Below are positions 9,640 to 48,560 of a stretch of DNA of 49,261 nt, one piece after another. Source of the stretch: Candidatus Nanopelagicales bacterium. GTDB taxonomy: Bacteria > Actinomycetota > Actinomycetes > S36-B12 > UBA10799. How positions within the stretch are numbered: the stretch's first letter is position 1; every line of letters begins with the position of its first letter. The translations under genes and the position numbers were made by a program. The notes under the pieces were generated by a model. The model saw nothing but the letters and a program-made list of their open reading frames with translations. It did not search any database and had not been told where the DNA came from. The stretch covers positions 1 to 49,261 of the forward strand of contig JBAYVO010000002.1 in assembly GCA_041674545.1 (NCBI GenBank), given 5' to 3'.

Positions 9640-12381
<2,742 letters not shown>

Positions 12382-27287: not shown

Positions 27288-27923
27288 TCAGCGAACGGTG
27301 ACACCAGACTGGTGGTACATCAGCGTGGCCGCGACTCGCGAATTGATTGCCCGATCCCGGTCTACGCCCAGGACCGTGTACAGCCGCGCAATCGTAAGTT
27401 CCACGGCCCGAACCGACCTGCCCCGCGCGATAGCGATCTGCGCATTGCTCAGGCCAGAGGCCACCAGTCGCAGTGTCGCAGCCTGATTGCGAGTAAGCGC
27501 CGGAATGCCCTGCTCGTTGTTGTGATGAATGCCCGGCAAGCCTCGCGCTGCCCGGTCGATGGCGTTTCTCACCACTTCAAGAGAAGTGATGTCCGCCTTC
27601 ACGAGGTACGAACAGTCTCGCAACGACGGCGGGTCATCTTGGACCAGGTAAGGCGATCGGTGATCACTGATCAGCACTGCGGGGATTCGACGCGCCTGCG
27701 CAGCCCTGATTTGTGTGAGGAAGTCGAGCGCAGATGGCCCGAACGTTGGGACCAATTCGATCACAGCAAGATCAGCGTGAAACTGTTCGTCGTTCAAATC
27801 GGCCGTGGTGTTGCCCTCAACGTGCGCGACGGAGAGGCCGAGCTGAGTTGAAATTTCCGTCACGTACGAACTCACGATGACGTTCTTCACTGAAACGAGG
27901 GCGCGCTGCGACGGCCACTGCAT
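27288..27923 (-). CDS. NarL/LuxR-type response-regulator-like protein with degenerate (pseudo-)receiver domain
   Basis: C-terminal LuxR HTH LTRNQAATLRLVASGLSNAQIAIARGRSVRAVELTIARLY. Receiver-like N-terminus has SS instead of the acidic pair and Glu (VIELV) at the phospho-acceptor position. ATG 27923 has AAGGTGG upstream. Confidence 0.75.
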   Translation of the reverse strand: MQWPSQRALVSVKNVIVSSYVTEISTQLGLSVAHVEGNTTADLNDEQFHADLAVIELVPTFGPSALDFLTQIRAAQARRIPAVLISDHRSPYLVQDDPPSLRDCSYLVKADITSLEVVRNAIDRAARGLPGIHHNNEQGIPALTRNQAATLRLVASGLSNAQIAIARGRSVRAVELTIARLYTVLGVDRDRAINSRVAATLMYHQSGVTVR

Positions 27924-28148
27924 TGCCACCTTAACCGGACCCCTCGCCCGCCGCTTCGAACGGCTGAGGCGACCGAGCAGAATGTCTATGTGACATTGCA
28001 ACGTGCCACATAGGCATATCCCGGAGACTCACTGGCGACACGTTAGCTGGAAGACCCGTTCGCGCGTCATCGCGACCCGAAACATACGGCCAATGCTTGC
28101 ATCTTTCGTCTCTCTTGTCATTGCCTGTGCACTCGGCTCAAAACAAGC

Positions 28149-28247: not shown

Positions 28248-29516
28248 CTACACCAACAGTCCGATCTCGTTCATCGTGAGGATGATCGCTGCCATCGCTG
28301 ATTCACGCGCGAACGGCAGGTGCGTACGCATGTTGCGGATCGAGTCTGACCACGGGAAGCTGTCGTACGACATGTCCCAGTGGTTCGCGTGGAACATCGC
28401 CATGTGGATGGCATCCGGACCCGGCAGTGCTGCCTCATCTTGCGTCAGCTGCATATCGTTGTCTGAGTCGTACTTTGACAGCTCCAGGTAGCCCTGCAAC
28501 TGGAACGGCGGAACATCTAGCTTGCTGGTCGCGCCGCTGAAGTAGAACTGCGGAATGCGCAGCGACGCCAGCGTTTCGGCGTTTTCAGCCAAGAATGCTT
28601 CGCGCTTGGTCGTGGTCAGGGACTCGATGGCGGCGAGCACATCGACCTCGTCTGGGCGACGTTCGAAGGCGCCGAGCGGAACCATGGGATAGAGCGAATT
28701 CATCATGACCGTCGTGCCAGCAGCAGTGTGCTGGAGTTCTTCGAAGTTGGGGATTGCGCGTGCGTTCTTCAGCATGCCGTCTGCAAGCCATGAACCCCCG
28801 ATTGCGCCCGCCCAGCCGAGCACTGCCTTGATCCGCGGAGCGAGGTCTGGGCGCTCGGCCAGGAAGGTGAGGATGTCCGGCCCACCCTTTGAGTATCCGA
28901 TCATGATGACGTTGCCGGGAGGCGTCGGGTTGTCATCCGCAGTGATCAGCGAGGCGTCGGGATCAGCCGCGACGCCGATACCACGTTCCATCGCGTTCAC
29001 GATGTCTTCGACGTTTGCCTCAGATCCACGCATCGGGTGAACATCGGCACACAGGATGTCGACGCCGAAGCGTGCGCGCATGACGGGAAAGACCTTCTGG
29101 AACGCAATGCCGAGCATTCCAGTGAGCAAGCCGGGCACAAACAAGATGCTCGTATCTTCAATCTTGCTAGGGGTTGCGATCGGCATTTCAAGCTCAAGTT
29201 CGGCGGGATCCAGATGCTTGATCATGCGGTGGGCAACTCGTGCGCGGTCGACCTTCGAGTCGATCAAGCGCACGGGGAACGGCGCACGCGACGCCTTCTG
29301 CGCGTCAGGGTTTGCGGCGGCCTCGGTGATGAAAATGTTGCGGTAGCGGATGCCGATCCATTCGGAAATCACCGGGTCGGCCATCGCTGCCGCCGGATCC
29401 TTTTCAAACGCGGCACGCACCAGCTCGATGACGCGCTCGAAGTTGCCTGCTGCTAGGGCGTCTTTGATGGCTGGGTCCGAAGGGGCGGTTTCGTTGGTGC
29501 TGAGTTCTGTGGTCAT
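28248..29516 (-). CDS. Hypothetical protein, probable alpha/beta-fold serine hydrolase
   Basis: 422-aa ORF. GxSxG-type elbow in VIMIGYSKGGPDIL. No signal peptide; family not recognised. Confidence 0.55.
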   Translation of the reverse strand: MTTELSTNETAPSDPAIKDALAAGNFERVIELVRAAFEKDPAAAMADPVISEWIGIRYRNIFITEAAANPDAQKASRAPFPVRLIDSKVDRARVAHRMIKHLDPAELELEMPIATPSKIEDTSILFVPGLLTGMLGIAFQKVFPVMRARFGVDILCADVHPMRGSEANVEDIVNAMERGIGVAADPDASLITADDNPTPPGNVIMIGYSKGGPDILTFLAERPDLAPRIKAVLGWAGAIGGSWLADGMLKNARAIPNFEELQHTAAGTTVMMNSLYPMVPLGAFERRPDEVDVLAAIESLTTTKREAFLAENAETLASLRIPQFYFSGATSKLDVPPFQLQGYLELSKYDSDNDMQLTQDEAALPGPDAIHMAMFHANHWDMSYDSFPWSDSIRNMRTHLPFARESAMAAIILTMNEIGLLV

Positions 29517-29717: not shown

Positions 29718-30245
29718 TTACGCCCCGGCGGCTACCTTCGCAAGTGGCGTCAAGCTTGCGACGCTCGAAGACTGGATGAGGATCAAGGTCGAATCGAACT
29801 CCGCCAAAGCCGTGGCTCCCAACGGGAGTTGAACGACTCGGAATGCACCTCGATCTGTTTGTATTTCTTTGCCCAGCGTTGCCCCATCGCCAGGATCAGC
29901 CGAGATGAGTTTGTCGGCCTTTGCGGCCGGCGCCTCCGGGAACACCGTGATCAGGCCAACACTTTGCGAGTCCTTTGAGACCGCGTAGGTCGTCGACTCT
30001 CCTAGACCTGGGATGCGACTTGGCGCGGTGACTTCAATCGCCAGCCCGCCCTCCGCCGCAGCCGCCGCTAGCCCCGCTGGAACACCGTCGCTCGCTCCCG
30101 CGTCGGTCGGTTCTGGAGCCGCTCCGCGGGTCGGGCCATCCACAGCCGCAGAAGTCTCCGGCGACGGACTTTGACCCGCAGTCGAACATCCAGCCAGGCC
30201 GATGCCAAGCGCCACCAACAGTGCCGCAGATCCTGTTGAGTTCAT
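29718..30245 (-). CDS. Small lipoprotein, last gene of the RHS operon
   Basis: MNSTGSAALLVALGIGLAGC lipobox, then a Pro/Ala-rich linker and a ~110-aa domain. ATG 30245 lies 2 nt after the upstream stop. Confidence 0.6.
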   Translation of the reverse strand: MNSTGSAALLVALGIGLAGCSTAGQSPSPETSAAVDGPTRGAAPEPTDAGASDGVPAGLAAAAAEGGLAIEVTAPSRIPGLGESTTYAVSKDSQSVGLITVFPEAPAAKADKLISADPGDGATLGKEIQTDRGAFRVVQLPLGATALAEFDSTLILIQSSSVASLTPLAKVAAGA

Positions 30246-30247
30246 CG

Positions 30248-33200
30248 TCAATCCTTCAGTTCGGCGATGCGCTTGTCGTAGTCCTTCTGGACTGCGGCGA
30301 TCTTCGCGTTGTAGTCACTGGTGATCTGCGCCCGAGCTTTTGCGGCCGTTTCTTCCGCGTTCATCAAGTCGAAGAGCTTATTGGCGAGCAGACCAAACTG
30401 CGTGGCTGGGAGCAAGGTGTCATTCCCACCGTCGCTGATAAAGGCCAGGGGGTACATCCCAGCGAAGATCGTGTCCCAGATACCGCATTTGGCGTCTCCC
30501 AACTCAGCGGTGTAGAACATCGTCAAAACCTCGCGGGTGGTCTTGGTCTTGAACCCTGGGTACCCGCATCGTTCTACGGTGTCGTACAGCGCATCAAGTT
30601 CTGTTCTGGCATCAGCTGCCGGCGTCCCGTCGTCGATCGCCTGTGCGAGGGAAACACGGTCCGCCTCAGCAAACATTTCACTCGTGAAGTACCGCTCGTT
30701 CGGAGCTTCGGCAAGTACCTCCGCAGTCCGCTTCGGCACATCCGGGATAACGACTGCGGCCAGCTTCTCGTCACGCTCAACCTTGAGTGCCGCGATCTCA
30801 GAGTCACGCGCCTTTGCGAGTTCAGCCGCTGTCATAGAGACGATGGTGAGTTCGGTCTTGCCAACCTCTGGCTGGAACGATTTGCGCTTACCCACCGCGG
30901 TAATCGCGTAACTCGTGGAGGTCCCCTTCGGCGGGGCCATCCCGGTGAGTTTGCAACTCGTCGCAGTACCCGGCACCGTGCAGGCCGCACCTCCCGGTGC
31001 TGCCGTCACGACGTAGGACTCAGGTAACTTGCTCCCGCCGACTGGTGGCGACCACGTCACATCGACAACACCTCCGCCAATGTGCGCAGCCTTGAAGTTC
31101 ACCAGCGGTGCCGGTATCTCGGGATCAACAACGTGCAACTGAGTCTTGCCGACCTCAGGGTGGTAGTCCCCGCGGTTTGCCTGAATGGTGAACGTGTAGG
31201 TGGTATCCGTTCCGGCTGGCGCCAGCTTTGTAATGTCACAACTCGTGGCCGCGCCATCCACGGTGCACGTACGCCCACCAGGTTCGGCCTTGACTACATA
31301 GTTCTCTGGTGGTTTGTGGCCGTCGTTTCGTTGCTGCCACGCGATCCGCACTGTCCCGTTACCCACATTCGTCGCCGTCACGTTGTCTACGGGGGTCGGC
31401 TCGTTGGGATCAAACATGGTGATCGAACTCTTGAGAACCTTCGATGGCTCCTTGACGCTCCAAACCCGCACGTCGAGCTTCTGCCCCTTCGTCATTTGTT
31501 TGAGGCTTCCTCGACGGAAGTCTTGTGGCGCGGAGTTCTTCGTGGCGGGATCAATTACCAGCATCGCCAGGTTCTTCTCTTTCTGATCTGACGTCATGGT
31601 GATCCCAGAAATTCGCTGCGATCCATCGGTTTCAACCTTGACATCGATCACGGACTTACCGAGTCCTCCGCCGTCAAGGCGCCCGGTGACCGTCGTGGCT
31701 CCGAGCAACGGCGTCGACCCCTGTGGAACCGGGAATGCCGTTGAGTCTTGGACGTAGTGTTGCCGGGACTCCGGATCGAATGCCGAGCCTGCGCTGCGTG
31801 TGTCGAAACGTAGTTTCGAACCTGGCCGGACCACAAATGGCGTGCCCTTGTCGTGCATTGACGCGAACAACGGCGTCAAACTCACCTTGCCGTTGGCAAC
31901 CGGGACATCGAAGAGCTTGTGGTTGTCTTCGGTGTGCACAGCAAGGTTAATCGCACCCCAATCAGGAACGTTCGCCATCTGGATTTCACCAGTGCGTAGT
32001 TCCCCTTGGTCGTCTGCAGTGAACTTCCCCAGAATCGTGAGATACGGATTGTTGTGGTTGCGACCCCAATAGTTGCCCCACTGGAGTGCCTGATCGAAGA
32101 CTGCCTCAGCCGAGTACACCTCTTGTTCACACCCTGCGGTTGTACTCGCCTCATCCCACCCAGCGGGGTAACGGGTCTGTTCTGGTGAGGTTCCCCCGGA
32201 CTTCACCGGAACGTTCACTAGACGTGTTCCCACAAACCGAACATCAGGTTTGGTAGGCGCGACGTTGTAGAAGGACACCTTGTCAAGGTCCCCACCGTTG
32301 TACGTCCACTTGCTCGCCGGAGTGGTGTTGCCCAACGACGTATTCGATGCCGTCAGATTGTTGAGCGTTGTTGCTCCGCCGACGACGGTAGAACCAACGA
32401 GCGTTGAGTTATTCAACGACCAGTTATTCAGGTCGTTTTGCAGTTCCGCGTTGCGCATGCATGTGTTCTCAGCGACCATCGCATCCGAAGAGTTCAACGA
32501 CGCGTACGAAAGATCGGAGTTGGTCAATCGTCCGAAGCGCGTGTTTGTCCCAGCAAGCTTGCGCGCTGTCAGATCTGTGACGTCGGGAATCACGGAATTG
32601 CGGGCTACTGCCCAGTCAAGATCCACTCCACGAAACGTTGTGTTCTGATTGAAGAACCCGGTCAGATGTGACCGGATTTCGTTTTGCGGCGAGGTGTATC
32701 GCGGACCAAGGGTGGAGTTCTCGAACGTGACGTCTTTGATGTTGGGACCAACGTCAGACACGATCAAGCGAACCTGTTGCGTCGATGGGTCGGTTGCAAC
32801 AAGAAAGCGATTGGCGGGTTCAGTCGCCAACATGCTGCCCGCGCCGAGTCCGGTAGTGGACGGGATCGGAGCTGCCCAATTCAGTTGTTCCCCGGAAGCG
32901 ATCTGCGCGACAGGGACCCTGCCAAGCTTGCCGCCCTTGAGCGGGCCTACGTAGAGATTCCCGTCGCGGTCATAGTCGACGAGAGACGGACGTGGATCCT
33001 GTGAACCCTCGTCTTCGCTATCACCTTTGTATCCGGTGATCAGAGAACGGATGGTGCCATCAGGGGTCACGACTCGTACTGCACGATCACGAGTGTCTGC
33101 GATAGCGATCTCTCCCGATGGACTGACCGCAACGTCATTCGGCGAATCCAATTTCGATTCGCTGGCTGGCCCGTGGTCACCACACGGTGTTGATTCATTG

Positions 33201-34183
33201 CACGGCTTGCCGGTGGGGCTTCCGGCCAAGCGATCAATGTCGCCTGTCTCGAAATCGATGAATCGGACAGAGTTGTTTGCCAAGTCAGCGAAGTAGAGCT
33301 TCCCATTGGAAAACTCCATGCCTGCGGGCTTCGCTACCCGCGCCTCTTCGGCCGGACCAGCATCGCCGCTGTAACCAAGTCGCCCGTTCCCGGCGACTGT
33401 CGAGATCGTGTTGTCGTTGAGGTCAACTGCCCGGATCAAGGATGCCGCCTGATCGGCAATGAACAGGCGATTGCCGTCGGTGTCCAACGCGAGACCAACT
33501 GGCTCCGACAGGTCAGCGACCGTCGCATCGCTACCGTCACCACAACGATCTATGTCAAAGGTGCACTTTCGCCCGGAGCCGGCGATCGTATTGATAACGC
33601 CCGTCTTGACGTCGATCGCACGCACTCGCCGGTTCCGTGAATCGGCAACGTAGATGGTGCTGGAGTCATCGGTGATCAAAACGCCCGTGGGACCCGAGAA
33701 CTTCGCTGTTGTTACTTGCGCACCATCACCCTCGAACCCTGCAGTACCGGCGACCCCTAACGATTGGGAAACGAACGTCCGAAGAGGTGCGTCAAAGGTT
33801 GCCCAGCCATAGTCCGTTGCGCACTGCGCGTGCGGCCCTGTACCTGTGAACGGCAGCTTGCACGCGCCTTCCGGCGGTTGCCACGACGTACCACGCAGCG
33901 ATGCACCGCGGAAGGTCGCGCCCTGCAGATTTGCGCCATCGAACCTGGCGCCGTTGAGAACGGACGACTCGAAGGTCACACCTCGCAGATCTTTGCCCCG
34001 AAAGTCATAGCCTTCGCATTGCGCCGCGTTCTCCAGACAGCCGGCCGCGCCAAGCAACTGGTCGGTGTCATCAGCGGCGTTTCGCGAAGTATCAGAACTA
34101 CCGCATGCCACCAGGCTTGATGCGGCAATCAGACCCACCAACGCAACAGCAATTCCTCTGGTCCGTGTGGTTACACCTCTCAT
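30248..34183 (-). CDS. Giant lipoprotein (1311 aa): pentapeptide repeats - NHL beta-propeller - beta-helix-like region - Ig-like region - 2 FN3-like modules - helical C-terminal domain
   Basis: Start ATG 34183 overlaps the upstream stop (ATGA). Lipobox AASSLVAC. See sub-features. The track ORF extends to 34372, but that extension is Arg/Cys-rich with no signal peptide. Confidence 0.85.
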   Translation of the reverse strand: MRGVTTRTRGIAVALVGLIAASSLVACGSSDTSRNAADDTDQLLGAAGCLENAAQCEGYDFRGKDLRGVTFESSVLNGARFDGANLQGATFRGASLRGTSWQPPEGACKLPFTGTGPHAQCATDYGWATFDAPLRTFVSQSLGVAGTAGFEGDGAQVTTAKFSGPTGVLITDDSSTIYVADSRNRRVRAIDVKTGVINTIAGSGRKCTFDIDRCGDGSDATVADLSEPVGLALDTDGNRLFIADQAASLIRAVDLNDNTISTVAGNGRLGYSGDAGPAEEARVAKPAGMEFSNGKLYFADLANNSVRFIDFETGDIDRLAGSPTGKPCNESTPCGDHGPASESKLDSPNDVAVSPSGEIAIADTRDRAVRVVTPDGTIRSLITGYKGDSEDEGSQDPRPSLVDYDRDGNLYVGPLKGGKLGRVPVAQIASGEQLNWAAPIPSTTGLGAGSMLATEPANRFLVATDPSTQQVRLIVSDVGPNIKDVTFENSTLGPRYTSPQNEIRSHLTGFFNQNTTFRGVDLDWAVARNSVIPDVTDLTARKLAGTNTRFGRLTNSDLSYASLNSSDAMVAENTCMRNAELQNDLNNWSLNNSTLVGSTVVGGATTLNNLTASNTSLGNTTPASKWTYNGGDLDKVSFYNVAPTKPDVRFVGTRLVNVPVKSGGTSPEQTRYPAGWDEASTTAGCEQEVYSAEAVFDQALQWGNYWGRNHNNPYLTILGKFTADDQGELRTGEIQMANVPDWGAINLAVHTEDNHKLFDVPVANGKVSLTPLFASMHDKGTPFVVRPGSKLRFDTRSAGSAFDPESRQHYVQDSTAFPVPQGSTPLLGATTVTGRLDGGGLGKSVIDVKVETDGSQRISGITMTSDQKEKNLAMLVIDPATKNSAPQDFRRGSLKQMTKGQKLDVRVWSVKEPSKVLKSSITMFDPNEPTPVDNVTATNVGNGTVRIAWQQRNDGHKPPENYVVKAEPGGRTCTVDGAATSCDITKLAPAGTDTTYTFTIQANRGDYHPEVGKTQLHVVDPEIPAPLVNFKAAHIGGGVVDVTWSPPVGGSKLPESYVVTAAPGGAACTVPGTATSCKLTGMAPPKGTSTSYAITAVGKRKSFQPEVGKTELTIVSMTAAELAKARDSEIAALKVERDEKLAAVVIPDVPKRTAEVLAEAPNERYFTSEMFAEADRVSLAQAIDDGTPAADARTELDALYDTVERCGYPGFKTKTTREVLTMFYTAELGDAKCGIWDTIFAGMYPLAFISDGGNDTLLPATQFGLLANKLFDLMNAEETAAKARAQITSDYNAKIAAVQKDYDKRIAELKD
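30830..31408 (-). repeat. Two tandem FN3/Ig-like modules (~95 aa each, clearly paralogous)
   Basis: VTATNVGNGTVRIAWQQ...ENYVVKAEPGGRTCTVDGAATSCDIT...YTFTIQA aligns with FKAAHIGGGVVDVTWSP...ESYVVTAAPGGAACTVPGTATSCKLT...YAITAVG. Confidence 0.7.
32918..33760 (-). other. NHL-repeat beta-propeller region
   Basis: Repeated blades YVADSRNRRVRAIDVKTG, FIADQAASLIRAVDL, YFADLANNSVRFIDFETG, IADTRDRAVRVVTPDG. Confidence 0.8.
33884..34012 (-). other. Pentapeptide-repeat stretch
   Basis: GYDFRGKDLRGVTFESSVLNGARFDGANLQGATFRGASLRGTS. Confidence 0.8.
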
Positions 34184-36933
34184 CGGATGCCCAACTCTCG
34201 TACTCGGTTGTTTCCGGTATCCGCAACAACAATGGTTTCCCAGGGAGTAACGGCTACGCCTTCCGGTGCGTTGAACGTCGCCGTCAGCGAATCGGCGCCG
34301 TCGCCAGAGAATCCGCGCGCTCCCGACTTGTTCGCGACGATCCCAGGATCGGCGATTCCAAAGGTGTTCCAACGTGTGATTCGGTTCTTGCCGGCCTCAG
34401 AAATGACCACGTTGTCCGCTAAGTCGATCATGAGGTCCGTCGGCTCGTCGAGGTTGTAGTCGTCACCGTCGGCATCTCCAATCACGTACTTCGTGACCGT
34501 TCCAGTTGGACCAATGGATCGGATTTGGTTGTTGCCAGTGTCGGCGATCAGAACGTTGCCGTAGTTGTCGAGCGCGATCGCACGAGGACTGTTGAAGCTC
34601 GCCTTAAGCGCGGTCCCGTTGTTGCCCAGGCACACGATCCCTGCAACGTTCTTCGTGTTCGGGCACTTTGCCCCCGCGGCCGAAATCTCCGCCGGTGTTG
34701 ACGTTCGCTTGCCGACTCCGGCGAAGTTGCTGATCACACCGGGTGCACCGTCCTTGCTGGTGATGCGCCTGATCTTCTGATTTCCGGTGTCTGCCACGTA
34801 GACCGAACAACGCTGGGTATCGCAGTCGACGGCAAGTCCCATCGGCCGGTTCAGTTGTGCCTTGATCGCGGCAATGTTGTTGCCGCTTGAACCCGCGGCA
34901 CCAGTGCCGGCCAGGGTCACGATCGTTCCGTCAGTCTCAATACGGCGGATCCGGTTGTTGCCGGTATCTGCGATGTACACCCGTCCGGCAGGATCAACTG
35001 CCAATCCCGTTGGGGCGTTGAGCAGAGCCTTGTTCGCGGGACCGCGGTCACCCTCGAAACCTGATTTGTCTTCGACCCCAGCGACGATCGACGTAGCTCC
35101 ACCTTGGGCCAAGTCAATCTTGCGCACGACGTTGCGTCCAGTGTCGGACACCAAGACAATCTTGGTTCCGGTATCGCCGCGCTGGTAGGCAACGACCCGA
35201 GCCGGTTCGGCCAACGTTGTTGCCGAGGTGCCGCCCGCTTCTGATCCTGTCTGGCCAAGGATGGTCGAGACGTACGTCTGACAGAGATAGTTCCCTGCCC
35301 CTATGCATGGCGGAGGCATCGGCGGCGCGGACTTCGGCAACTCCTTACCCGCACATCCAGTCGTGGAGCTCGGCCGACTTCGGTCTGGGCAGTCAGCGAC
35401 AGTTGTGAACGACTTCGCTCCTAAGCCCTTCGACGCTGCGTAGGTAACGGGGGCTGGTGCCGAACCACTACCAGTGTTGAACTTCCAGGTGCCGCCAGCA
35501 CTTTGCGAGGCGGCATCGGGGAACTCGCTCTTGTCCAGGACTGCGCTTTCGAAGTCACTACCGAACAGGTAGGACCGTGCGAATTCGGCACTCGTCACTG
35601 TCGCGTTCGTGAACTTGCAGTTGATGCACTGCGTGCCTCGGAAGCTCGAACGATCAAGTTTTGCGTAGCTGAAATCGCCGTTGGCAATCAGTGCGTCGTC
35701 AAGGCGAGCATCGCCCATTTCCGCGTTCGCGAACTTTGGGGTCTTACCGGTGGAGAATATGTAGGCGCCTCGAAGACTCGTGCCCCGAAGGTCACTGCCC
35801 GAGAAGTCCGCACCCCGCGCGTCAACGGACGTCAGGTCCGCGCTGCCCTCGTTACCGCTAACGCCGCGGCCGAGTTGGGCTTGGGTTAAGACCGCGTCGC
35901 CCAACCGCGCGCGGGTGAAGTCGGCTCGATGCGCAGTGACACCGGACATCACTGCCTCGTACATGCTGCTGTTGCGGAAGTTGGTCTCTTGCAGGTCCGC
36001 TTGGGACAGATCGACTTGCTCCATGCTCAAACCGGAGAAGTCAGACCCCGCGAGCGAGGTCGTCCCCGTGAACTTGACCTGCATGAAGTCTGGCCTTGCA
36101 CCCAAGAACCGTGACTTTGTGATCGACATATTGGGAGCTTTTGTTTCACGCAGGTAGTCGCGATTCTGTGGTTCGACTAGGAACGAGGTATTGGCGTAGT
36201 TCTGGTTGCCCCAGGTTCCCTTCACATCCGAATCGGCATCTGCGTTCTGCACGAATCCTGGATAGGCAATGACTGAGTCCTCAACGGTCAGCTTGTTCTT
36301 CGCCCACTCGATCTGGTTCTTGACCAAGGTGGGGTCGATGATCACCTTTGAGAAGGTGACCCCAGATAGCTCGGCACCGCTGATATCGGAGTCGTACATC
36401 TGTGTCTGCGTGAACTTCGCGCCCGCCCAGTTCGCCTTTGTCGCGACTACGCCAGCCAACTGCGCTGGCCTATCAGAGGAGACGCCAAACACCGTGTTCG
36501 AGAAATTGGAGCCCTCGGCGAAGGTCGTGTTGTAAATGGTGGCCCCGGAGAAATTGCTACCAGACACATCGACTTTCCCGAACGTGATGCCGGTGATGTC
36601 GAGGTCCTTGAAATCACACGCCGTGCAACTGCCCGTTTGTAGGAGCTTGCGAATACTTGGGTCGGCCGACTCGTCTCGCAACAGTTGCTTCTTGTTGACC
36701 TTTGCTAGCCCTTGGAGTTTTTGGCGTTCCAACTCCCGCGCAGCTAGAGCGTCCTGATAGTCCTGACCCGCCTGAAGCCCCTCATCCACATCAGGTGCAG
36801 TCGCAAGCGTGATCGAGGTGTCATCATCCTGACCACCAGCCGATCGACTCGTCTCTGCTGTGTTCGCGCATGCACTTACCAGCAGCGCGCCGACGACCGC
36901 CAACGTGGCGAACCTGACTTGCGACTTCTTCAT
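34180..36933 (-). CDS. Giant lipoprotein (917 aa): long pentapeptide-repeat region followed by an NHL beta-propeller
   Basis: MKKSQVRFATLAVVGALLVSAC lipobox at ATG 36933. Pentapeptide region roughly 35512-36627 (e.g. ADLQETNFRNSSMYEAVMSGVTAHRADFTRARLGDAVL). NHL blades roughly 34183-35268 (YIADTGNNRIRRIETDG, YVADTGNQKIRRITSKDG, LIADTGNNQIRSIGPTG, VVADTGNNRVRELG). Confidence 0.88.
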   Translation of the reverse strand: MKKSQVRFATLAVVGALLVSACANTAETSRSAGGQDDDTSITLATAPDVDEGLQAGQDYQDALAARELERQKLQGLAKVNKKQLLRDESADPSIRKLLQTGSCTACDFKDLDITGITFGKVDVSGSNFSGATIYNTTFAEGSNFSNTVFGVSSDRPAQLAGVVATKANWAGAKFTQTQMYDSDISGAELSGVTFSKVIIDPTLVKNQIEWAKNKLTVEDSVIAYPGFVQNADADSDVKGTWGNQNYANTSFLVEPQNRDYLRETKAPNMSITKSRFLGARPDFMQVKFTGTTSLAGSDFSGLSMEQVDLSQADLQETNFRNSSMYEAVMSGVTAHRADFTRARLGDAVLTQAQLGRGVSGNEGSADLTSVDARGADFSGSDLRGTSLRGAYIFSTGKTPKFANAEMGDARLDDALIANGDFSYAKLDRSSFRGTQCINCKFTNATVTSAEFARSYLFGSDFESAVLDKSEFPDAASQSAGGTWKFNTGSGSAPAPVTYAASKGLGAKSFTTVADCPDRSRPSSTTGCAGKELPKSAPPMPPPCIGAGNYLCQTYVSTILGQTGSEAGGTSATTLAEPARVVAYQRGDTGTKIVLVSDTGRNVVRKIDLAQGGATSIVAGVEDKSGFEGDRGPANKALLNAPTGLAVDPAGRVYIADTGNNRIRRIETDGTIVTLAGTGAAGSSGNNIAAIKAQLNRPMGLAVDCDTQRCSVYVADTGNQKIRRITSKDGAPGVISNFAGVGKRTSTPAEISAAGAKCPNTKNVAGIVCLGNNGTALKASFNSPRAIALDNYGNVLIADTGNNQIRSIGPTGTVTKYVIGDADGDDYNLDEPTDLMIDLADNVVISEAGKNRITRWNTFGIADPGIVANKSGARGFSGDGADSLTATFNAPEGVAVTPWETIVVADTGNNRVRELGIR

Positions 36934-36950
36934 AGCGGTACCTATCAGCC

Positions 36951-39900
36951 TTAGGCTCGTCTTGGAGTGCGTGGGACCCAGATGGAGACCGAGGGTTGCC
37001 TGGTCGACTGGCCTGACAATGCCTTGATCGATTGGTAGTTCAGCGAGTACACGTCTCTGAACCAATCGACTGCCATTCGGCCGCTGTTGACCTTCTCGAC
37101 TCTGAACAGTCGGGTCTCAGACTTCGGTGCGTAGACATCAAGGACGTAGTCGTTGATCGTCGTACCAGCGTTCCGGTAGCCGAGCACGTAGACGTAGCCG
37201 TCACCGTCGTTGCCGACGTCCAATAACGTCACACCGGGATCAGTTGGGGCGTAGAACTGTTCTTCCTCAGAGTTGCTGTTCTCGCTTGCAAATGCTTTGA
37301 CTGGAACGCCGAGCAGATTGAATGCCGAGAGTCGCTTCGCTCCTTGTTCGAGGATGACCAACACGCCATTTGACGAGACGGCCAAGCCGACCGGCTTGTC
37401 AAACAGTCCTGGGCGAGCACCGTCCTTATTGCCCGGCCCGCCAAAGACAGATGCCACCGGCGCGGTGCCTTCATCGACGGCGTGGGACTTCAAAGCCGGG
37501 CGAAGGATCGACAGTTGCGCCGAGTCAGTATTGATACCGGTGATGAGCCCGCCCGGCGCCAAGGACGCCGCATGCACTCTCGTTGGGATGTGCCCGTACA
37601 CCTTCTTTGGATCGAAGACGATCGAATTGTTGCCGAGAGCCAATTTGCGAATGTGGTAGCCATCTTGCTCGTCAGCCGTGGCTGCTACAGGTTCAAGAAG
37701 CCACGCTTCCGCGACGCCGTTGGTTCGATTTTGCAACGGATCCGTCAGCACGATCGGTGGATTGCCGGTGTACGTGGTGCTCAATTCCGCGGCACTAGCG
37801 CCAGGATCTTCGGAGCTGTTCAGCTGGCGCACGAACCACTTGCCGGCCGATTTGTAGACGTACCCCATCAGGCCCGTTCCGTGCCCATACATGACCGAAC
37901 CAAGCGTGAAGTCGGCGTCATGAATGGTGCCCGGAACTTCTGCTCCCTGCGCCATCACGTAGCGGCCACCAGCAACGTCAGTCGTCCAACGACGCTCAAG
38001 CCGGGACTTGCTCCCGAGTTCAACGGCGTCCTCGAGCACAGTCACTTCGATAGAGTCTTTGACCTCCTTGAGGTTTGAATTGTCGAGCCAATCGGTCGCT
38101 GCGGAACCGACTGTCCAACCATCCTGGCTCAGGATCGTGATGATGTACTGAATCCTGCCGCCAAATGGGACCTGCGGAAGCGGGATCTCTAATGGTTCGG
38201 TACGTGGGTTCTCGAAGGCGGGAATGACGGCGTACGTGGAGTACTTGTCACCGTCGATGACCTCGATGGTTTCTTTGAAGCCCGCCGGGAGGTACTCCTT
38301 GCCCTCGGTCTGATTCTCCAGCAGCACAGTTACCTTCCAGCACGCTGCCGACTTTGAGAAACCACTATCGAATTGCGGCTTTGCCGTCAAGACTGCGTCG
38401 TAGGTTGCAGACAGATCCCAGTAGTTTGTGTCGTTCTGGCAAACCGCCCCGGTCGCCTGACCCACCTGGGACGCGGCGCCAGCCAATGCCGTCACGATGT
38501 AGATCTGCCCGTAAATCGGAATTGCTTTCTGAATGGTTGACTCAGTTAGCGTCTCCAGGTAAAGGCCCATCGCCTTGTAAATAAACCTGTAGGTGAGGAA
38601 GTCCAGGATCATCTTCGAAATCGCGATAATTCCCGCCGAAATCTGATTTGAAGTACTGGCCAGCCTTCCTTTCATCAATCCCTCGATCAGACCGAACACC
38701 GTCTCGATCCAATAGATCGCACCGAATCCAGACTTACGACGCTTCGCGATGTCCTCCGCCGTCAAGTAGGTGATTTCGATTTCACCATCGTCATGCTTGA
38801 TCGTCTTGTAGTCGCTTGTCGTCTGACTACACATGTTTCGGAATCGGTTGGCAGCAATCGCTTGGCTGAGGAACATCAATCCTGGAATTCCGATGTCGAC
38901 GACTGCGGTGGTGAACACAGCATCTTGGTACCAATCGGGACGGACGTAGTGATTGTCCGCAGTGTCGACGTAGGCCGGCAACAACTTTGGCTTACCATCT
39001 GGCCCCAAGACTTCGGTTCCATTGGCATCCAACTCGACAGACTTGAACAGATCCCGCCAGTCGTTGCCAGTGCCAAGTGATCCCGCGATTACCCGTGCTC
39101 GGACCGCTTCCGCCGGCATCGGGATCGAGATATCCAAGTAGTTCGAATCGAGACCAACCGGCAGGCCCATCACAATGGGAATTGATTCAAGCAAACGAGC
39201 CCCAAGGCGCCACGTTGGATCCAGCTTGTTGTTCGACAGCCGATAGTCGTCCGGTGGTGAAATCGGCAGATCTCTAGAGTCAAAGTACTGAACGCCGAAG
39301 GTGACAGTACGGTCGAGGTTGTTCCAGACGCGAAGCTTCAGCTGAGTCCCGCCACCCTGTGCCTGGCTTGTTTCTTTGAGCTGCACGTACATCCCGTTGC
39401 GACTCTTCTTTTCGCCCTGCAGGACTGAGTAGTTCACCTTGGCGTCGTTTGATCCGCGGAACTTCGCCAACACTCCGCCACCCGCGCTATTGCTCCTGGC
39501 TGCGTCGCTAACGGTTATTGGGCTAGGTGGAGTGGCCGGCATGACCGCCCAGGTCTTGCCACCGAGGTCGTTGAGGTCGGTCTCAGCGTTGATCATTGCA
39601 CCAAGGTCAGGCTCGGCCTGGACAACTTCATTGCCTTCTGCAAGCGCTGCCTGCAAGGCGGCTTTGTAGTTGAAGATGAGGTCGCGAGGAATCTCTTTGC
39701 CTTGCCACTTCATGCCCATCTGGACGAAGGGGATCAAGGTCTTTGCCGGGAGTTCACCAATCTCCGGATCGACGGAGATTGTCGGTTCCCCGGGGGGCTT
39801 CTCGTAGCTAGTCCCGAGCCTTGGGTCAAGAGTTTGCGGCACGATCTTGCCGGACTTCACGCCCTTCACCATGTCTTCGAGAATCCCGTACGGGGCCCTC

Positions 39901-45900: not shown

Positions 45901-48560
45901 TTCTTGACCCGAGTTGCTCCAAATGGCGCAGGCTCGTATTCGCTAGTTCCCGCCTCCTGGGTCCATTTGCTCGCACCTTGGCCGGACAGGGAACTACCCT
46001 CCATCCTGGTCGCTTGACCAGCTGCAGGATTTTCGTAGTAGAACGAAGCGCTCCCGGAATTCGCGTCCTTGCCGTTCGGGTATGGATCTCTCGTTGTCCT
46101 CTTTGCTGCGGTGTACGCCCGTTGGAGGAAGTGCTGATTGGTAACAGGTTCCCGTTTGCCATCCTCAGGCGCGAGCGTTATTTGGATGTTCTTCCCCGCT
46201 GCCGATGCGTCGGACTTACGCGACAAGTCGATATTGAATCCGATCGGCGAACCAGTCGCCGACTTGTTGTCACTGGAATTGTCGTAGGTGCAGCTGCCCG
46301 CAGTCTGACCATCTACAACCGCACAGAAACTACTCCCCAGCCACACCGACCCCTTGATATCTGGATCGGAAGTAGCAATCTTGATGGAGTACTCTTCGCG
46401 TTTCAGTGCCAGACCGCCCGTGATGCGCGCCGACCAATCTCCGCCGTTGACGCCGGACGGCACTTGGGTCGAGAACCCGCCGTCGTAGTTCAGCACACTC
46501 GTCGCTACCGGAGTTCCAGCAAACGAGGAACTGCCGAACCACGAGGCGATCATTCCGTTGCCTACGCTTGCGGGATCGCCATAGGTAGTCTTCGTCGATA
46601 GCACGGCGTTCGCGTCCGTGGGTAGGCACGGATTGTCTTTGAGGACATCCGCCGACGACTTGGGCGAACACTTTGTCATATTGAACGCAGAATCTGGCCC
46701 ACTGTACTGACCGATCTCCATGCCAATCTTGTCGTACTCATTGGCTTGAACTGTTGTTCCAGTAATGCTCGCGTATACGATCTTGTATGACGGGTGCCAA
46801 ACTGCCTGAGTCAGCGCGCCGTTCGGCTCCAACTTGTACAGCGGGCGGATTCGGTCATCGAAGGCTTGATGAGCGAGCTGCGCCGACTGTGAACCATCCG
46901 ACATCGTTGCTGTAGTCGTGGTTTGGTGCGTCGCTGGCAAGAATTTCGCGTCTACTTCACCAAACTCCTTGTAGGTTTTGGTGAGAACTTGGTGAACCCC
47001 GTTCGAAGTTAGAGCGGGGAGTTCTTGCATCTTGATTCGGCCAAGGTCGTCGTATTGAGTCCGCTGGATAATTGGATCCTTGGCAGGATCCGAGCCTGCA
47101 ACCAGGCTGCCTGCTGCCAACGATTGGTTCGCGATCTGATCACGCACGAGGAAGGGTCGATTGCGGTCGTCCCAACCAATGTCGTAGAACTGAATGTCAC
47201 GCCAATCGCAATCTCCCAGGGAGAACTCACAGCTCTGAGGTGCCCCCGTGAGGCGGCTCAACCTCGCGTGAGCCGCACCCTGCGGCTGGGTGTAGTCGAA
47301 CTTGGACCACTGATCGAACGGCTGTTCAAGCACGCAGATCATGCCGTCTGGGGTGTCAACGAAGCCTGGAGCTCGGCCAGAATCATTGCACTGCTTGTCG
47401 CCACCGTAGTAGAAGTTCCAGGACAAACCCGCTTTACTGACCGACTTCAGCAGTTCCCCGTCGCCTCGGTACGAGAGCTCGAAGGGCGCGCTCCCCGGGG
47501 TGTTGTACGTAGTCAACCGACCCTTGGAATCGAATGACCAGTTGGAGCCATCACTCTGCTGGGTGACGACGATCGAATCCGATCCTGTGGCGATAGTTGC
47601 TGCGAAGCCGACACCAGCAGCAGCGCCAGTTAGTGACTGACACTGCTTCCCGATTGAGGTGGGCTTACACCCGAGCATGGTCTCAGTTCCGGAAGTGTCC
47701 AGCGTGAGGAATTCTGTGAAGTCTTGGTAACCGTTTGCCGGCCCGAGGACCGCCTTCGACATCCCCTGCGGCAGACCGACCCAACTCCATCCCGCCGGTA
47801 GGCCTCCGCGGAATCCACTTGTGGCGTTGGTCTGTGGATTTACACCCAAATCGGCAGTTGTGAAACCTAGGCTTACGGCTCCTGACGCGGCCGGTGCCGA
47901 AATCTCTCGACTCTTCAAGGCCAGCGTGTTGCTGCCGCTGGCATCCCCTGTGTCAGCAATTGCAAACAGTCTGCGCTCGCTACGAGACGCCCCCGACTTC
48001 ACCGTAGTAGTGGTGACCATATAGCCAGCGCCAGTTGTCAGGGTTCCAGCAGGAACGATGCAATAGACCGACCCAGGTACTGAGTTGAGTGACTTGAGGG
48101 CCTTCTTTGGTGCCTTGTTGGAGCTGGGGATCGAACAATTCGGATTGGTGGCTGCCTCACCTGAGTCCCACTTGACTGCTCCGTCCCCCAACGCCCCTGC
48201 CTCGGCGACAACAAATCGATACGAGGTTGACCCTGGCTGTGCTGTCAGCTTGACCCGCGTACCGCCAACGCCCACCTGCTCGCTGACTCGCAGGTCGAGT
48301 CCCTGATCGGTGGGTCCAAGTGCACCGGGCATACCTGGGATGGTGTAGGCACCTCCTGCCAGACCACCTCCCCCGGATTCAAACCCGGCCGCTGGAGACA
48401 GCGAAGGCAACGCCCCGACAGTGACCGGGTCGGCGTCACCAGCTGATCGAGTGCTTTCGGCGGAGCCGCAGGCACTCGCAAGCAAGCTGAGGCTTACCAG
48501 TCCCGCAACGACCGCGTACACCCGTGAGGTGCGATTGCCGAATGCTGTCTTCTCGATCAT
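42912..48560 (-). CDS. RHS/YD-repeat lipoprotein (1882 aa) with PA14-like insertion and hydrophobic C-terminal payload domain
   Basis: Lipobox SLSLLASAC from ATG 48560. Numerous YD-type repeats (FDSKGRLTTY, YDDLGRIKM, DASGRVSTMISDQYGQV, DPKGNITDE, YGYDQDGRRI, WDKNGNY, RDLSGRVYEQ). RHS-core end motif present. See sub-features. Confidence 0.9.
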   Translation of the reverse strand: MIEKTAFGNRTSRVYAVVAGLVSLSLLASACGSAESTRSAGDADPVTVGALPSLSPAAGFESGGGGLAGGAYTIPGMPGALGPTDQGLDLRVSEQVGVGGTRVKLTAQPGSTSYRFVVAEAGALGDGAVKWDSGEAATNPNCSIPSSNKAPKKALKSLNSVPGSVYCIVPAGTLTTGAGYMVTTTTVKSGASRSERRLFAIADTGDASGSNTLALKSREISAPAASGAVSLGFTTADLGVNPQTNATSGFRGGLPAGWSWVGLPQGMSKAVLGPANGYQDFTEFLTLDTSGTETMLGCKPTSIGKQCQSLTGAAAGVGFAATIATGSDSIVVTQQSDGSNWSFDSKGRLTTYNTPGSAPFELSYRGDGELLKSVSKAGLSWNFYYGGDKQCNDSGRAPGFVDTPDGMICVLEQPFDQWSKFDYTQPQGAAHARLSRLTGAPQSCEFSLGDCDWRDIQFYDIGWDDRNRPFLVRDQIANQSLAAGSLVAGSDPAKDPIIQRTQYDDLGRIKMQELPALTSNGVHQVLTKTYKEFGEVDAKFLPATHQTTTTATMSDGSQSAQLAHQAFDDRIRPLYKLEPNGALTQAVWHPSYKIVYASITGTTVQANEYDKIGMEIGQYSGPDSAFNMTKCSPKSSADVLKDNPCLPTDANAVLSTKTTYGDPASVGNGMIASWFGSSSFAGTPVATSVLNYDGGFSTQVPSGVNGGDWSARITGGLALKREEYSIKIATSDPDIKGSVWLGSSFCAVVDGQTAGSCTYDNSSDNKSATGSPIGFNIDLSRKSDASAAGKNIQITLAPEDGKREPVTNQHFLQRAYTAAKRTTRDPYPNGKDANSGSASFYYENPAAGQATRMEGSSLSGQGASKWTQEAGTSEYEPAPFGATRVKKVTSALGSSSTFEYWGVDETPGDSDLAELGQIPDYLLDAKQLGSLKSITDASGRVSTMISDQYGQVSCTRTSNTSNVNSGNWSCTWRDEMYRQTKAVTAGSDGKPEIETVYTHDLLRTPGDAFTSSTAVTSTEGEPDHTVKQTVNRTQQVETYEDAIGTRSEFVMDPKGNITDEIVTAAPQDGKQAKSITIRNGYNELGYMTSTALGGIVVQRTTWGDAGPGNGMQLKRVEYPDIAMSLQPRYDNNAQLEGQTWTLKSGQKIEESIKTTLGQSLLSTEFAGEKAEYNYQGGTVLKRATIAGVDFNYGYDQDGRRICSAAGIANPGDTPKDCNQLPGHYSYTYANDRVVSTTNPQAAIPDNSWDKNGNYTQIGNMNLQYDATEQLSRATTPDGGILELKRDLSGRVYEQTMNAPTVAPVSLSNAQWKDARALLAKSRKLGTNQNQILDQYVAANVPAIPMPVDEPQRNAGEVEGDSTAPTESGDAQVAVPADPAASATAPTEPEAPVASATEQPDPQAPPTPAIPSGDESVEPAPSESASTDQPAPTEASPAQPAPGADAGPKTQTIKLGYSSPSGSPRVLYSDNDAAIMITLAGGLAIEGGTLTIPSLSGIGKLKIAADGSRGDRAPEFVGPYGEQIGNSDPSTANMPGSRLSTVGVRAFSRDLGTFMQPDPKVAAGAGQYSYGNGDPVNFSDASGTTAMGDWIKNGLTGGHHGMDAVSAGFFAVAWTFVTGALGVAMFKGMMKFNYFAKGGAWASIIVGAMYALEGYGMGFLSEEITTYGHVSMNNSLTWSFNGICATLTGIAGGLGYYFGRASNNLGEALQTVADNAQATLEQGVTALQNVPATITSVGQTVATGLEDASGKVAAVMKQEAIPAIKEAGISIGTSSGKGFAGATVGWGVGGLAGDAFDSYTGLGLKPLFQLAGGAVGGAIGMNFTPTIKAAVSYVRESRLGKGVAAWTRKAMLKGQGVLQQGAVLKTAVMTQISGRGSSVFNYF
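42915..43811 (-). other. C-terminal 299-aa payload domain: three hydrophobic helices plus Gly-zipper-rich segments (putative membrane-inserting toxin)
   Basis: AVSAGFFAVAWTFVTGALGVAMF, GGAWASIIVGAMYALEGYGMGFL, WSFNGICATLTGIAGGLGYYFG, then GFAGATVGWGVGGLAGDAF and LFQLAGGAVGGAIGMNF. Confidence 0.5.
43812..43937 (-). other. RHS repeat-associated core end (putative autoproteolysis motif)
   Basis: VRAFSRDLGTFMQPDPKVAAGAGQYSYGNGDPVNFSDASGT resembles R.Y.P..GRF...DP.G....N.Y.Y..N.P....DP.GL. The last DPxGL is degenerate (DASGT). Confidence 0.7.
44217..44540 (-). other. ~108-aa Pro/Ala/Glu-rich low-complexity insertion between the last YD repeats and the RHS core end
   Basis: PAIPMPVDEPQRNAGEVEGDSTAPTESGDAQVAVPADPAASATAPTEPEAPVASATEQPDPQAPPTPAIPSGDESVEPAPSESASTDQPAPTEASPAQPAPGADAG. 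Confidence 0.8.
44673..47540 (-). other. YD/RHS repeat (shell-forming) region
   Basis: Spaced YD-repeat signatures across about aa 355-1310 of the track ORF. Confidence 0.8.
46278..46556 (-). other. PA14-like (carbohydrate-binding) insertion inside the RHS region
   Basis: GMIASWFGSSSFAGTPVATSVLNYDGGF...DWSARITGGLALKREEYSIKIATSDPDIKGSVWLGSS follows the PA14 pattern (GL.gEYF....F.G.PV ... FS.RWTG.L....G.Y.F...SDD...LW.dG). Confidence 0.55.

Follow-up and report, generated by a model that had tools for sequence, protein, structure and literature searches.

Six consecutive minus-strand open reading frames (ORFs) fill positions 29718-48560 of a 49,261-nucleotide stretch of DNA (the window; contig JBAYVO010000002.1) from the actinobacterium Candidatus Nanopelagicales (Actinomycetota, class Actinomycetes). 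The best explanation of these genes, named G1 to G6, is that they form one co-inherited cassette, predicted to encode a multi-protein assembly on the outer face of the cytoplasmic membrane. Comparison of related loci indicates that the cassette is real, with G1-G4 as its core and G5 and G6 as accessory genes, because the co-occurrence of the genes survives deep divergence, rearrangement and change of neighbourhood. G3 together with a gene for a pentapeptide-repeat protein is shown, at the level of sequence, to constitute an ancient and widespread two-gene module, and in this actinobacterial lineage the module is seen to be joined to G1, a divergent predicted lipoprotein with an RHS-associated core. 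We favour, tentatively and with somewhat less than even confidence, the view that the products form a membrane-tethered surface complex that presents a cleavable, membrane-inserting RHS C-terminal domain.

Close relatives of G3 are rare. Only 2 were found among 5.8 billion proteins, and both lie in Logan contigs (L001 and L002) that carry G1-G6 in order, with identities of 57% (G1), 75% (G2), 69% (G3), 71-79% (G4), 60-67% (G5) and 43-48% (G6) and with flanks unrelated to those of the window. G6 is the fastest-evolving member of the block. Three more distant loci retain G1-G4: in the same order at 31-36% identity, without G5, in L086; in the same order at 36-42% identity, with a G5-like gene on the opposite strand, in L090; and at 27-32% identity in L091, where the order is rearranged to G4 (reverse) / G3-G2-G1. 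The flanks differ between loci, yet G1-G4 are found together in all six (window, L001, L002, L086, L090 and L091), and G2 adjoins G1 in every one of them. Recomputation reproduced the six ORFs of a preliminary description of this DNA together with their lengths and their junctions, which in G1 to G6 order are gaps of 54, 15 and 17 nt, a 4-nt overlap and a gap of 2 nt. The orthologous contigs L001 and L002 share the 2-nt gap between G5 and G6 as well as the ATGA overlap between G4 and G5 (Table 1). Every start codon is ATG and the stretches upstream are purine-rich.

All six products are shown by pattern rules to carry predicted Sec-lipoprotein or twin-arginine (Tat) signals. Lipoboxes were called with a PROSITE-like rule, and the Tat signal by its motif and a hydrophobic stretch; both recovered what the preliminary description had listed, namely five lipoboxes and one twin-arginine signal. 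G1, G2, G4, G5 and G6 are accordingly predicted lipoproteins, with the lipobox cysteine at residues 31, 24, 22, 27 and 20, respectively; the n-region of G6 is without K/R, though the lipobox rule matched. G3 is a predicted Tat substrate, with TRRRFLTW followed by a hydrophobic region, a motif that recurs in its family. Among orthologues, tethering appears to be kept while the type of anchor varies (lipobox, N-terminal transmembrane helix or Tat-lipobox): the G4 orthologues have an N-terminal transmembrane helix as their anchor, and the G3 orthologues at L090:10001-13798 and L091:3591-7301 show a Tat motif followed by a lipobox cysteine (MAGCSQD and LSGCTPD), which makes them predicted Tat-dependent lipoproteins. 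G3 of the window has no cysteine at this position. Co-occurrence had been set beforehand as the test that could refute the inference that the six products belong together, tethered outside the cytoplasmic membrane; the inference held, on the evidence of co-inheritance and of anchors that are kept.

When each GTDB species was represented by a single genome, a pattern scan for G3 recovered 168 relatives, from Myxococcota, Acidobacteriota, Binatia, Pseudomonadota, Planctomycetota, Nitrospira, Paenibacillus and Humibacillus. The neighbourhood analysis covered 80 retrieved loci with 10-kb flanks. An adjacent cluster-mate gene occurs 58 times in the 80 loci, and in 48 of these cases it shares the strand of a neighbouring full-length G3-type gene. 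This partner is mostly downstream of the G3-type gene, with an overlap or a short gap. All partners scanned (51/51) carry Pfam Pentapeptide, and there are at least five natural fusions of a G3-family protein to a C-terminal pentapeptide region (P0092, P0111, L022, L050 and L067; 1579-1834 aa), one of which also has a CHRD domain. In the window, G4 is the positional and domain equivalent of this partner. No other conserved gene surrounds the pair in the 80 loci, and no G1, G2-specific or G6 homologues were found in them. We found no description of the pairing of pentapeptide and Tat/NHL proteins in the literature.

In its exported form, the module consists of a G3-type protein with a Tat motif and a partner with a lipobox or Sec signal. 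By a crude signal heuristic, both members of the pair have signals in 22 cases, neither in 12, and 14 are mixed; this joint presence or absence is the pattern expected of partners that would share a compartment. Signal-less pairs were seen in L012-L016, L021, L023, L028 and L081 (Paenibacillus), in L063 and L077 (Humibacillus), and in L065, L029, L035, L040 and L053. The signal-less G3 homologues begin at a conserved LHFDLS/HYDLRFLG motif, so the module has, besides its exported form, one that is cytoplasmic or released non-classically.

Several large genes beside the pair deserve mention. The pairs of Paenibacillus curdlanolyticus and of P. kobensis have, one gene downstream, a TcB/TcC-type fusion that combines SpvB, TcdB_mid_N/C, FG-GAP and RHS repeats (L013:15556-21587 and L028:14478-21755; 2010+ and 2426 aa), and no TcA gene is visible in the 10-kb flanks of these two loci. 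The Tc link of the module may be incidental, because the other Paenibacillus pairs adjoin unrelated glycanases and lectins. In Humibacillus xanthopallidus, a STAND protein of ~1840 aa precedes the pair (L063:2423-7966 and L077:2335-7845, minus strand). These large Humibacillus neighbours were considered as RHS proteins and rejected, being NACHT/AAA_16 and multi-WD40 STAND proteins on the opposite strand. Long antisense ORFs in high-GC loci such as L024 and L027 were treated as artefacts.

G3 is the founder of a sizeable, unannotated protein family that is without a Pfam model. At E < 1e-3, an exhaustive HMMER search with G3 reached 612 cluster representatives, of which 407 pass E < 1e-10 and 47 pass E < 1e-30; most have 1000-1300 aa. 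No Pfam or NCBIfam model matches the members scanned, save weak Tat-signal ones (Pfam TAT_signal/UCR_Fe-S_N in 12/21 members), and about half of the full-length members have a twin-arginine motif. When a 48-sequence alignment of the family was used in a word-indexed search for homologues, only the three close proteins and one NHL protein came back, and these brought no names or annotations for the family; a genome scan with the three close G3 sequences alone returned nothing. The 48-sequence alignment was too diverse for pattern derivation, and a 21-sequence subset was used for the genome scan.

The structure of G3 was modelled with AlphaFold2 (AF2) from 46 family sequences (predicted local distance difference test (pLDDT) 82.9, predicted template modelling score (pTM) 0.66). 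In the model, which is numbered as protein residue minus 55, the N-terminal region spans 1-530, a set of helices 540-706, and a beta-sandwich with a propeller 709-1200. The propeller, which the preliminary description had missed, matches the NHL domains of TRIM2, TRIM71, Thin and PknD (Foldseek E = 1e-8 to 1e-10), and the family profile matches the Thin NHL at E = 3e-27. NHL matches dominated the Foldseek search with the full model; residues 56-765 were re-modelled alone, and for the N-terminal ~710 residues Foldseek gave no significant fold match in the PDB (best E = 1.4e-3, to small beta-sandwich lipoproteins). Foldseek detected no similarity of G3 to TcA or to any pore-forming toxin, and the four long helices are too weakly hydrophobic for classical transmembrane segments.

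The partners of G3 within the cassette are built from repeats whose labels in the preliminary description (pentapeptide, NHL and FN3) all lie above Pfam cut-offs. G4 combines a pentapeptide beta-helix (35284-36645; 108.9 bits against a Pfam Pentapeptide cut-off of 20.2) with an NHL propeller (34183-35181) that scores 78.7 bits with Pfam NHL and 75.8 bits with TEN_NHL, above the cut-off. G5 and G4 are paralogues (28-32% identity). G5 contains a pentapeptide segment of limited length (33878-34027; 33.6 bits), an NHL propeller (~32774-33721) above the Pfam NHL and TEN_NHL cut-offs, and two FN3 domains (~30854-31393) followed by a coiled-coil-like tail. G2 has a single short pentapeptide segment (41388-41549; 34.8 bits), with no assignment for the remainder of the protein. 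Pfam and NCBIfam scans found no enzyme, transporter, regulator, PAAR, VgrG or LXG domain in the six proteins, in agreement with the earlier statement that the block holds no enzyme, transporter, regulator or secretion component; nor is there a catalytic or carbohydrate-binding Pfam domain in any of them.

G1 is an RHS protein, but weakly so at the sequence level. Its matches to RHS, YD and core models are confined to residues ~1250-1583, the last quarter of the protein body: Pfam RHS_repeat reaches 20.7 bits in one stretch (cut-off 22), the RHS-core model TIGR03696 31.8 bits (E = 1.5e-7; 0.7 bit short of its cut-off of 32.5) and the YD-repeat model TIGR01643 20.3 bits (cut-off 15.8). Searches of PDB sequences with the whole protein and with the whole-family profile found no match, nor did a search with the middle region, 601-1095. 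We nevertheless retain the RHS label, because a profile of residues 1090-1600 matches the solved Rhs cores 8qjd and 8qjb at E = 5e-6 via repeated YD matches, because the L090 orthologue of G1 (36% identical) passes Pfam RHS_repeat with 54.5 bits over 5 repeat stretches, and because a catalytic-type triad, R1544, D1557 and D1579, is invariant across 5 homologues. The RHS/YD label of the preliminary description is therefore real and, at the same time, weak, with only the last quarter detectable.

The RHS-associated core of G1 keeps the predicted autoproteolytic site of an arginine and two aspartates. The spacing of the triad (R-13-D-22-D) resembles that of BiTLP (R2103/D2116/D2140; PMC13018210). 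The second DPxG motif reads DASG in G1 and DPTG, DPSG or DLTG in its relatives. Between the repeats and the core of G1 sits a Pro/Ala/Glu-rich insertion that the distant homologues P0007 and P0008 lack (89% gaps). An alignment of the G1 family to the Paenibacillus TcB/TcC-like protein with hhalign covers the core motif only (58 columns, probability 2.5%). Upstream of the repeats, residues 40-1090 contain many invariant cysteine pairs, and a PA14/GLEYA-like stretch can be discerned by eye at residues ~665-770 (window ~46250-46570; GMIASWFGSSSFAGTPVAT...DWSARITGGLALKREEYSIKIAT), undetected by Pfam or by PDB profile.

If the complex does present a toxin, it might work as follows. The pentapeptide beta-helices of G4 and G5 would be rigid stalks (~450 residues would give a rod of ~10 nm) that hold the NHL propellers, and in G5 the FN3 domains, off the membrane as binding heads. 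G3, exported folded through Tat, would join G4 and G5 via its own NHL propeller. G1 would be the effector: its RHS core would cleave off the C-terminal domain, and the shell would retain this domain until contact, whereupon the released domain would insert into the membrane of a neighbouring cell and dissipate its membrane potential, as do the Tse5 C-terminal fragment and the B. inaquosorum TLP domain. G6 would be the sole candidate for a protective protein. We favour this toxin reading because the triad is intact, because the C-terminal domain is fast-evolving and Gly-rich (17% Gly and 13 GxxxG motifs), and because Tse5, teneurin-like proteins (TLPs) and CdiA offer precedents.

A number of observations weigh against it. 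The C-terminal domain is homologous in 7/7 family members (window, L001, L002, L003, L004, L086 and L090), which is not the behaviour of a polymorphic toxin, because real polymorphic toxins swap this domain; and at 299 aa it is far above the ~15 kDa typical of teneurin-like cargo. In 7/7 members, K/R residues make the first loop, after helix 1, positive and abound in the region after helix 3, and the loop between helices 2 and 3 has none, a pattern that looks like the positive-inside signature of a resident N-out/C-in membrane protein. Helix 1 equals signal peptides in hydrophobicity (scored on a biological hydrophobicity scale) and should, if so, stop transfer in the producer's own SecYEG. 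No immunity-like small gene follows G1, which in every case adjoins the conserved G2 (~700 aa), and a small-ORF search found no small hydrophobic or hairpin immunity-like ORF in the flanks or downstream of G6. The position of G6 is taken in L086 by a non-homologous 232-aa lipoprotein, and L090 is without G6. The tethering of all six proteins under the wall is awkward for reaching another monoderm cell. Residues ~40-1090 of G1 have no RHS similarity or other match that profile or PDB searches could detect. The module, too, is free of RHS elsewhere: no RHS gene lies within 10 kb of it in >70 genomes, and it also occurs as signal-less pairs, the taxa of which include Paenibacillus, Humibacillus and one Nitrospira metagenome-assembled genome. 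A regular-expression count of YD motifs in the 80 loci flagged one Paenibacillus Tc gene only, and RHS is therefore not a general neighbour of the module. Of the two kinds of neighbour proposed at the outset for G3 homologues, the pentapeptide partner was thus present throughout the pairs scanned, and the RHS gene was not. G2 was considered as an immunity protein and rejected on account of its excessive size and of its conservation, which at 75% exceeds that of the C-terminal domain (35%). Overall, the earlier proposal of a complex for toxin presentation or delivery stands as regards the assembly; its toxin part is plausible in view of the triad and the hydrophobic domain, and what counts against it is that the domain is conserved, that no immunity gene is present, that the loops follow the positive-inside rule and that the module is free of RHS elsewhere.

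Many of the same observations would be accommodated by an envelope complex that is not toxic but serves adhesion, sensing or the architecture of the wall zone, and in which the C-terminal domain merely anchors; we regard this as a close rival, although less likely than not. G1 would be doubly anchored, by its N-terminal lipid and by 3-5 C-terminal helices with a basic cytoplasmic tail, in a teneurin-like logic; G2-G5 would be stalk-and-head binders, and the RHS core a structural plug or maturation site. The loop charges, the hydrophobicity of helix 1, and a C-terminal domain that is conserved rather than swapped and has no immunity gene all agree with a resident anchor, as do the shortest versions of this domain, which consist of 3 helices with a basic tail of 110 aa. 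The partners are all built from protein- or glycan-binding repeats (NHL, FN3 and pentapeptide), the YD shell of animal teneurins serves adhesion (PMC13018210), and regulatory genes are found nearby (a histidine kinase and a response regulator adjoin the L001 cassette, and a LuxR-like gene lies 1.7 kb downstream in the window), but these are not conserved between loci. The autoproteolytic triad is harder to reconcile with such a complex, since it is invariant and cleavage would detach the shell from its anchor. In addition, all functionally studied bacterial RHS-core proteins cited here are toxin carriers (PMC13018210, PMC10684867), and the C-terminal domain, with 30-41% identity compared with 50-76% for the shell, evolves ~2x faster.

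A bolder version of the toxin reading, which we consider distinctly doubtful, is that of a 'split teneurin'. Shell, propellers and FN domains would reside on separate lipoproteins, and a conserved membrane-inserting domain would be delivered to neighbouring cells by means of Sec and Tat only. This would amount to contact-dependent inhibition for monoderms without a dedicated secretion apparatus, built on an unrecognized extracytoplasmic two-protein machine that extends from Myxococcota to Paenibacillus and that one actinobacterial lineage would have coupled to an RHS cocoon.

Two further explanations are improbable. One is an apparatus that binds polymers or particles for nutrient capture, with the propeller and FN3 lipoproteins attached to extracellular glycans; the PA14-like stretch discerned by eye in G1 would agree with it. 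The window also encodes an LPMO10-GH5-CBM2 enzyme and solute-binding proteins, Paenibacillus pairs lie among secreted glycanases and lectins, and NHL propellers act as lectins elsewhere, for example in UmbA (PMC11062931). The six proteins, however, have no catalytic or carbohydrate-binding Pfam domain, none of the six loci has a transporter linked to the cassette, neighbouring genes vary from locus to locus, and the RHS core and the hydrophobic C-terminal domain are left without a role. The other, to which we would give about as little credence, is a released, Tc-like or binary toxin against eukaryotic grazers or hosts, with G3 and its partner as the binding or translocation unit and G1 as the cargo cocoon. 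It gains from the TcB/TcC-type fusion one gene from the pair in P. curdlanolyticus and P. kobensis, from the signal-less pairs, which are as usual for Tc components, from the four 28-40-residue helices beside the propeller of G3, and from the frequency of the module in soil predators and social bacteria. Against it, G3 lacks fold similarity to TcA or pore-forming toxins and its helices are not hydrophobic, a Tc neighbour occurs in only 2-3/80 loci, with unrelated glycanases as the other Paenibacillus neighbours, and the proteins of the window are all predicted to be membrane-tethered, not released. That the genes are mere neighbours, independently acting surface proteins that accumulated with no shared function, is very improbable: repeat-protein genes duplicate easily, G5 and G6 are dispensable in relatives and an extra pentapeptide gene lies outside the block (25581-27074), but in six loci, even where identity drops to 27% and order and flanks have changed, G1-G4 are not separated, stop/start overlaps are conserved, and the adjacency and fusions of G3-type and pentapeptide genes span phyla.

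The features of the cassette are collected in Table 1. The block has a GC content of 58.3%, compared with 61.1% for the remaining window, a difference that had been noted by eye and is real but small; GC at third codon positions (GC3) is ~0.62-0.70 for the block and mostly 0.71-0.78 elsewhere in the window. A scan for sigma-70 promoters and intrinsic terminators gave fewer matches than shuffled sequence and is uninformative for an actinobacterium. The contig ends ~700 bp upstream of G1. Housekeeping proteins encoded nearby share 90%-identity clusters with proteins of metagenome-assembled genomes labelled Candidatus Nanopelagicales, in agreement with an actinobacterial host.

Table 1. Genes and sequence features of the G1-G6 cassette, in window coordinates
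Feature	Position	Strand	Description or evidence
G1	42912-48560	(-)	1882-aa predicted lipoprotein; divergent RHS/YD protein with hydrophobic C-terminal domain
G1 signal peptide with lipobox LLASAC, Cys31	48468-48560	(-)	Lipobox also in L086 and L090 orthologues
G1 YD-repeat-like region, residues ~1090-1300	44661-45293	(-)	RHS_repeat 1255-1279, TIGR01643 1264-1297, YD matches to PDB 8qjd/8qjb
G1 Pro/Ala/Glu-rich low-complexity insertion, residues ~1310-1440 (~130 residues)	44241-44633	(-)	Read from sequence
G1 RHS-associated core, R1544/D1557/D1579 and motif GDPVNFSDASGT	43812-44213	(-)	TIGR03696 at 1536-1582
G1 C-terminal domain, 299 aa	42915-43811	(-)	Begins after GDPVNFSDASGT; 3-5 hydrophobic helices and basic tail
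G2	40734-42857	(-)	707-aa predicted lipoprotein
G3	36951-40718	(-)	1255-aa Tat-signal protein; founder of unannotated family
G3 twin-arginine signal (TRRRFLTW and hydrophobic region), no lipobox	40584-40718	(-)	Motif match
G3 N-terminal alpha/beta and beta-sandwich region	38949-40553	(-)	AF2 pLDDT mostly 85-95
G3 four long amphipathic helices, 28-40 residues	38436-38936	(-)	AF2 540-578, 599-631, 637-676, 679-706; pLDDT ~50
G3 C-terminal beta-sandwich and six-bladed NHL propeller	36954-38429	(-)	pLDDT >90
G4	34180-36933	(-)	917-aa predicted lipoprotein; pentapeptide beta-helix and NHL propeller
ATGA stop/start overlap G4/G5	34180-34183	(-)	ORF coordinates; kept in L001 and L002
G5	30248-34183	(-)	1311-aa predicted lipoprotein; pentapeptide, NHL and FN3
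G6	29718-30245	(-)	175-aa small predicted lipoprotein

Downstream of G6, on the minus strand, the window encodes a 422-aa protein with a GYSKGG (GxSxG-like) motif and no Pfam match (28248-29516) and a 237-aa protein with sub-threshold matches to GerE and sigma-70 region 4, possibly a response-regulator-like LuxR protein (27288-28001); neither ORF is conserved beside the cassette in other loci. These are followed by a 497-aa exported pentapeptide protein (25581-27074, minus strand; Pfam 269.7 bits in 10 stretches) with an N-terminal transmembrane anchor, which ends in a Cys-x-Cys loop motif common to G3 partners. In L001 (L001:1-2008), a response regulator (Response_reg and GerE) and a 627-aa multi-transmembrane protein with a weak HATPase_c match precede the cassette and could represent a dedicated two-component regulator; the window has no such pair upstream of its cassette, because the contig stops there. 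Elsewhere in the window, YcnI-like DUF1775 and CopC genes lie side by side (24270-25548, plus strand), likely a copper-handling pair, and a gene at 9607-12381 (plus strand) encodes a 924-aa cellulolytic enzyme with LPMO10, a GH5 cellulase and two CBM2. Nanopelagicales are usually regarded as streamlined planktonic bacteria.

Whichever reading is correct, the G3 family adds ~400-600 unannotated clusters at 50% identity, with N-terminal 700 residues that have no fold relative, and its strict partnership places exported pentapeptide-repeat proteins (PRPs), a functional puzzle for decades, in a context that is among the first to allow tests of their role. If the toxin reading is true, the cassette would represent a third Gram-positive route to a surface protein toxin without a type VI or type VII secretion system (T6SS, T7SS), after WapA/TLP-type proteins and umbrella particles, and a case in which YD shell, NHL propeller and FN domain are separate subunits, which bears on the assembly of animal receptors. 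Were it an envelope complex instead, G1 would represent a novel sort of RHS-like envelope protein with two anchors, which would be unusual and of narrower interest.

The preliminary description had held the complex to be of a kind not described for monoderm actinobacteria. This is overstated, given the Streptomyces umbrella particles (PMC11062931) and the teneurin-like RHS proteins of Actinomycetota (PMC13018210), and we therefore compared the cassette with these and other known systems. Bacterial TLPs are reported in Actinomycetota and Bacillota (Raoelijaona et al. 2026); cleavage by signal peptidase II (SPII) is predicted only for the Gram-negative ones, and those of Gram-positive bacteria have predicted signal peptidase I (SPI) sites with S-layer or wall-binding domains (PMC13018210). 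The C-terminal domain of the B. inaquosorum TLP is hydrophobic and permeabilizes membranes when exported (PMC13018210). G1 shares with TLPs its character as a large, predicted Sec-exported surface protein, here with a lipoprotein anchor as predicted for Gram-negative TLPs, and its weak YD/RHS repeats with an RHS core containing the Arg/Asp/Asp autoproteolytic site; moreover, the NHL propellers of G4 and G5 exceed the cut-off of the Pfam teneurin NHL model (TEN_NHL). However, the FN-plug, NHL and YD shell of TLPs form one polypeptide, whereas the propellers here are in G3, G4 and G5, and G1 itself has no Pfam match to NHL or FN. In TLPs the C-terminal domain is polymorphic, measures ~15 kDa and has an immunity gene after it; G1 ends in a conserved domain of 299 aa, and the next gene encodes a 707-aa lipoprotein. 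Pentapeptide or Tat partners are not described at TLP loci.

Tse5 is an Rhs pore-forming toxin of Pseudomonas aeruginosa (PMC9637101, PMC10684867), and Sec-exported CdiA carries glycine-zipper ionophore domains (PMC11630599). With Tse5, G1 would have in common an RHS cocoon and autoproteolytic release of a C-terminal fragment, which in Tse5 inserts in membranes and depolarizes the target and in G1 is predicted to do so. Tse5, in contrast, is T6SS cargo (PAAR/VgrG-dependent) of a diderm, with an adjacent membrane immunity protein, whereas G1 is a predicted Sec lipoprotein without a T6SS or T7SS marker, and the sequence similarity between the two is negligible (E = 3.8). No Pfam or NCBIfam match to PAAR/VgrG, LXG/WXG or a wall-binding trafficking module was found in G1-G6 or in the neighbours scanned.

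The umbrella toxin particles of Streptomyces are multi-protein toxin complexes exported by Sec and Tat (PMC11062931). They resemble the cassette in being actinobacterial, in their co-encoded mix of Sec and Tat signals without a dedicated secretion system, in their beta-propeller binding heads and in a large scaffold protein with a C-terminal effector domain, two roles that are predicted for the cassette. There is, however, no homology, as the ALF repeats, the trypsin-like UmbA and the UmbB fold are absent from G1-G6 (Pfam), and umbrella particles are released into the medium with polymorphic toxins and immunity genes, whereas here the C-terminal domain is conserved, the components are predicted to be tethered to the membrane, and a protein other than the Tat-exported one would carry the effector. 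Tc (ABC) toxins likewise enclose a C-terminal cargo of ~30 kDa in an RHS cocoon that includes an aspartyl autoprotease and is associated with a propeller, an arrangement predicted for the cassette too, and the G3 pair adjoins a TcB/TcC-like gene in two Paenibacillus genomes. They differ in that G1 has no SpvB, TcdB_mid or FG-GAP (Pfam), with the core motif alone aligning, that there is no TcA, and that G3 has no TcA fold similarity.

Further exported pentapeptide-repeat proteins are the PRPs of the thylakoid lumen. Another is PedD of the Pseudomonas ped cluster, an uncharacterized protein encoded beside a beta-propeller protein (PMC12997753). In both, pentapeptide beta-helices lie outside the cytoplasm, as would those of G4 and G5, but with other partner proteins and no RHS link. 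Overall, the cassette shares the logic of TLPs, Tse5-type Rhs proteins, umbrella particles and Tc toxins and should not be filed with any of them, because it fails the defining features of each. Surface RHS systems are already known; the two-gene module of G3 and a pentapeptide-repeat protein is new, widespread and unannotated.

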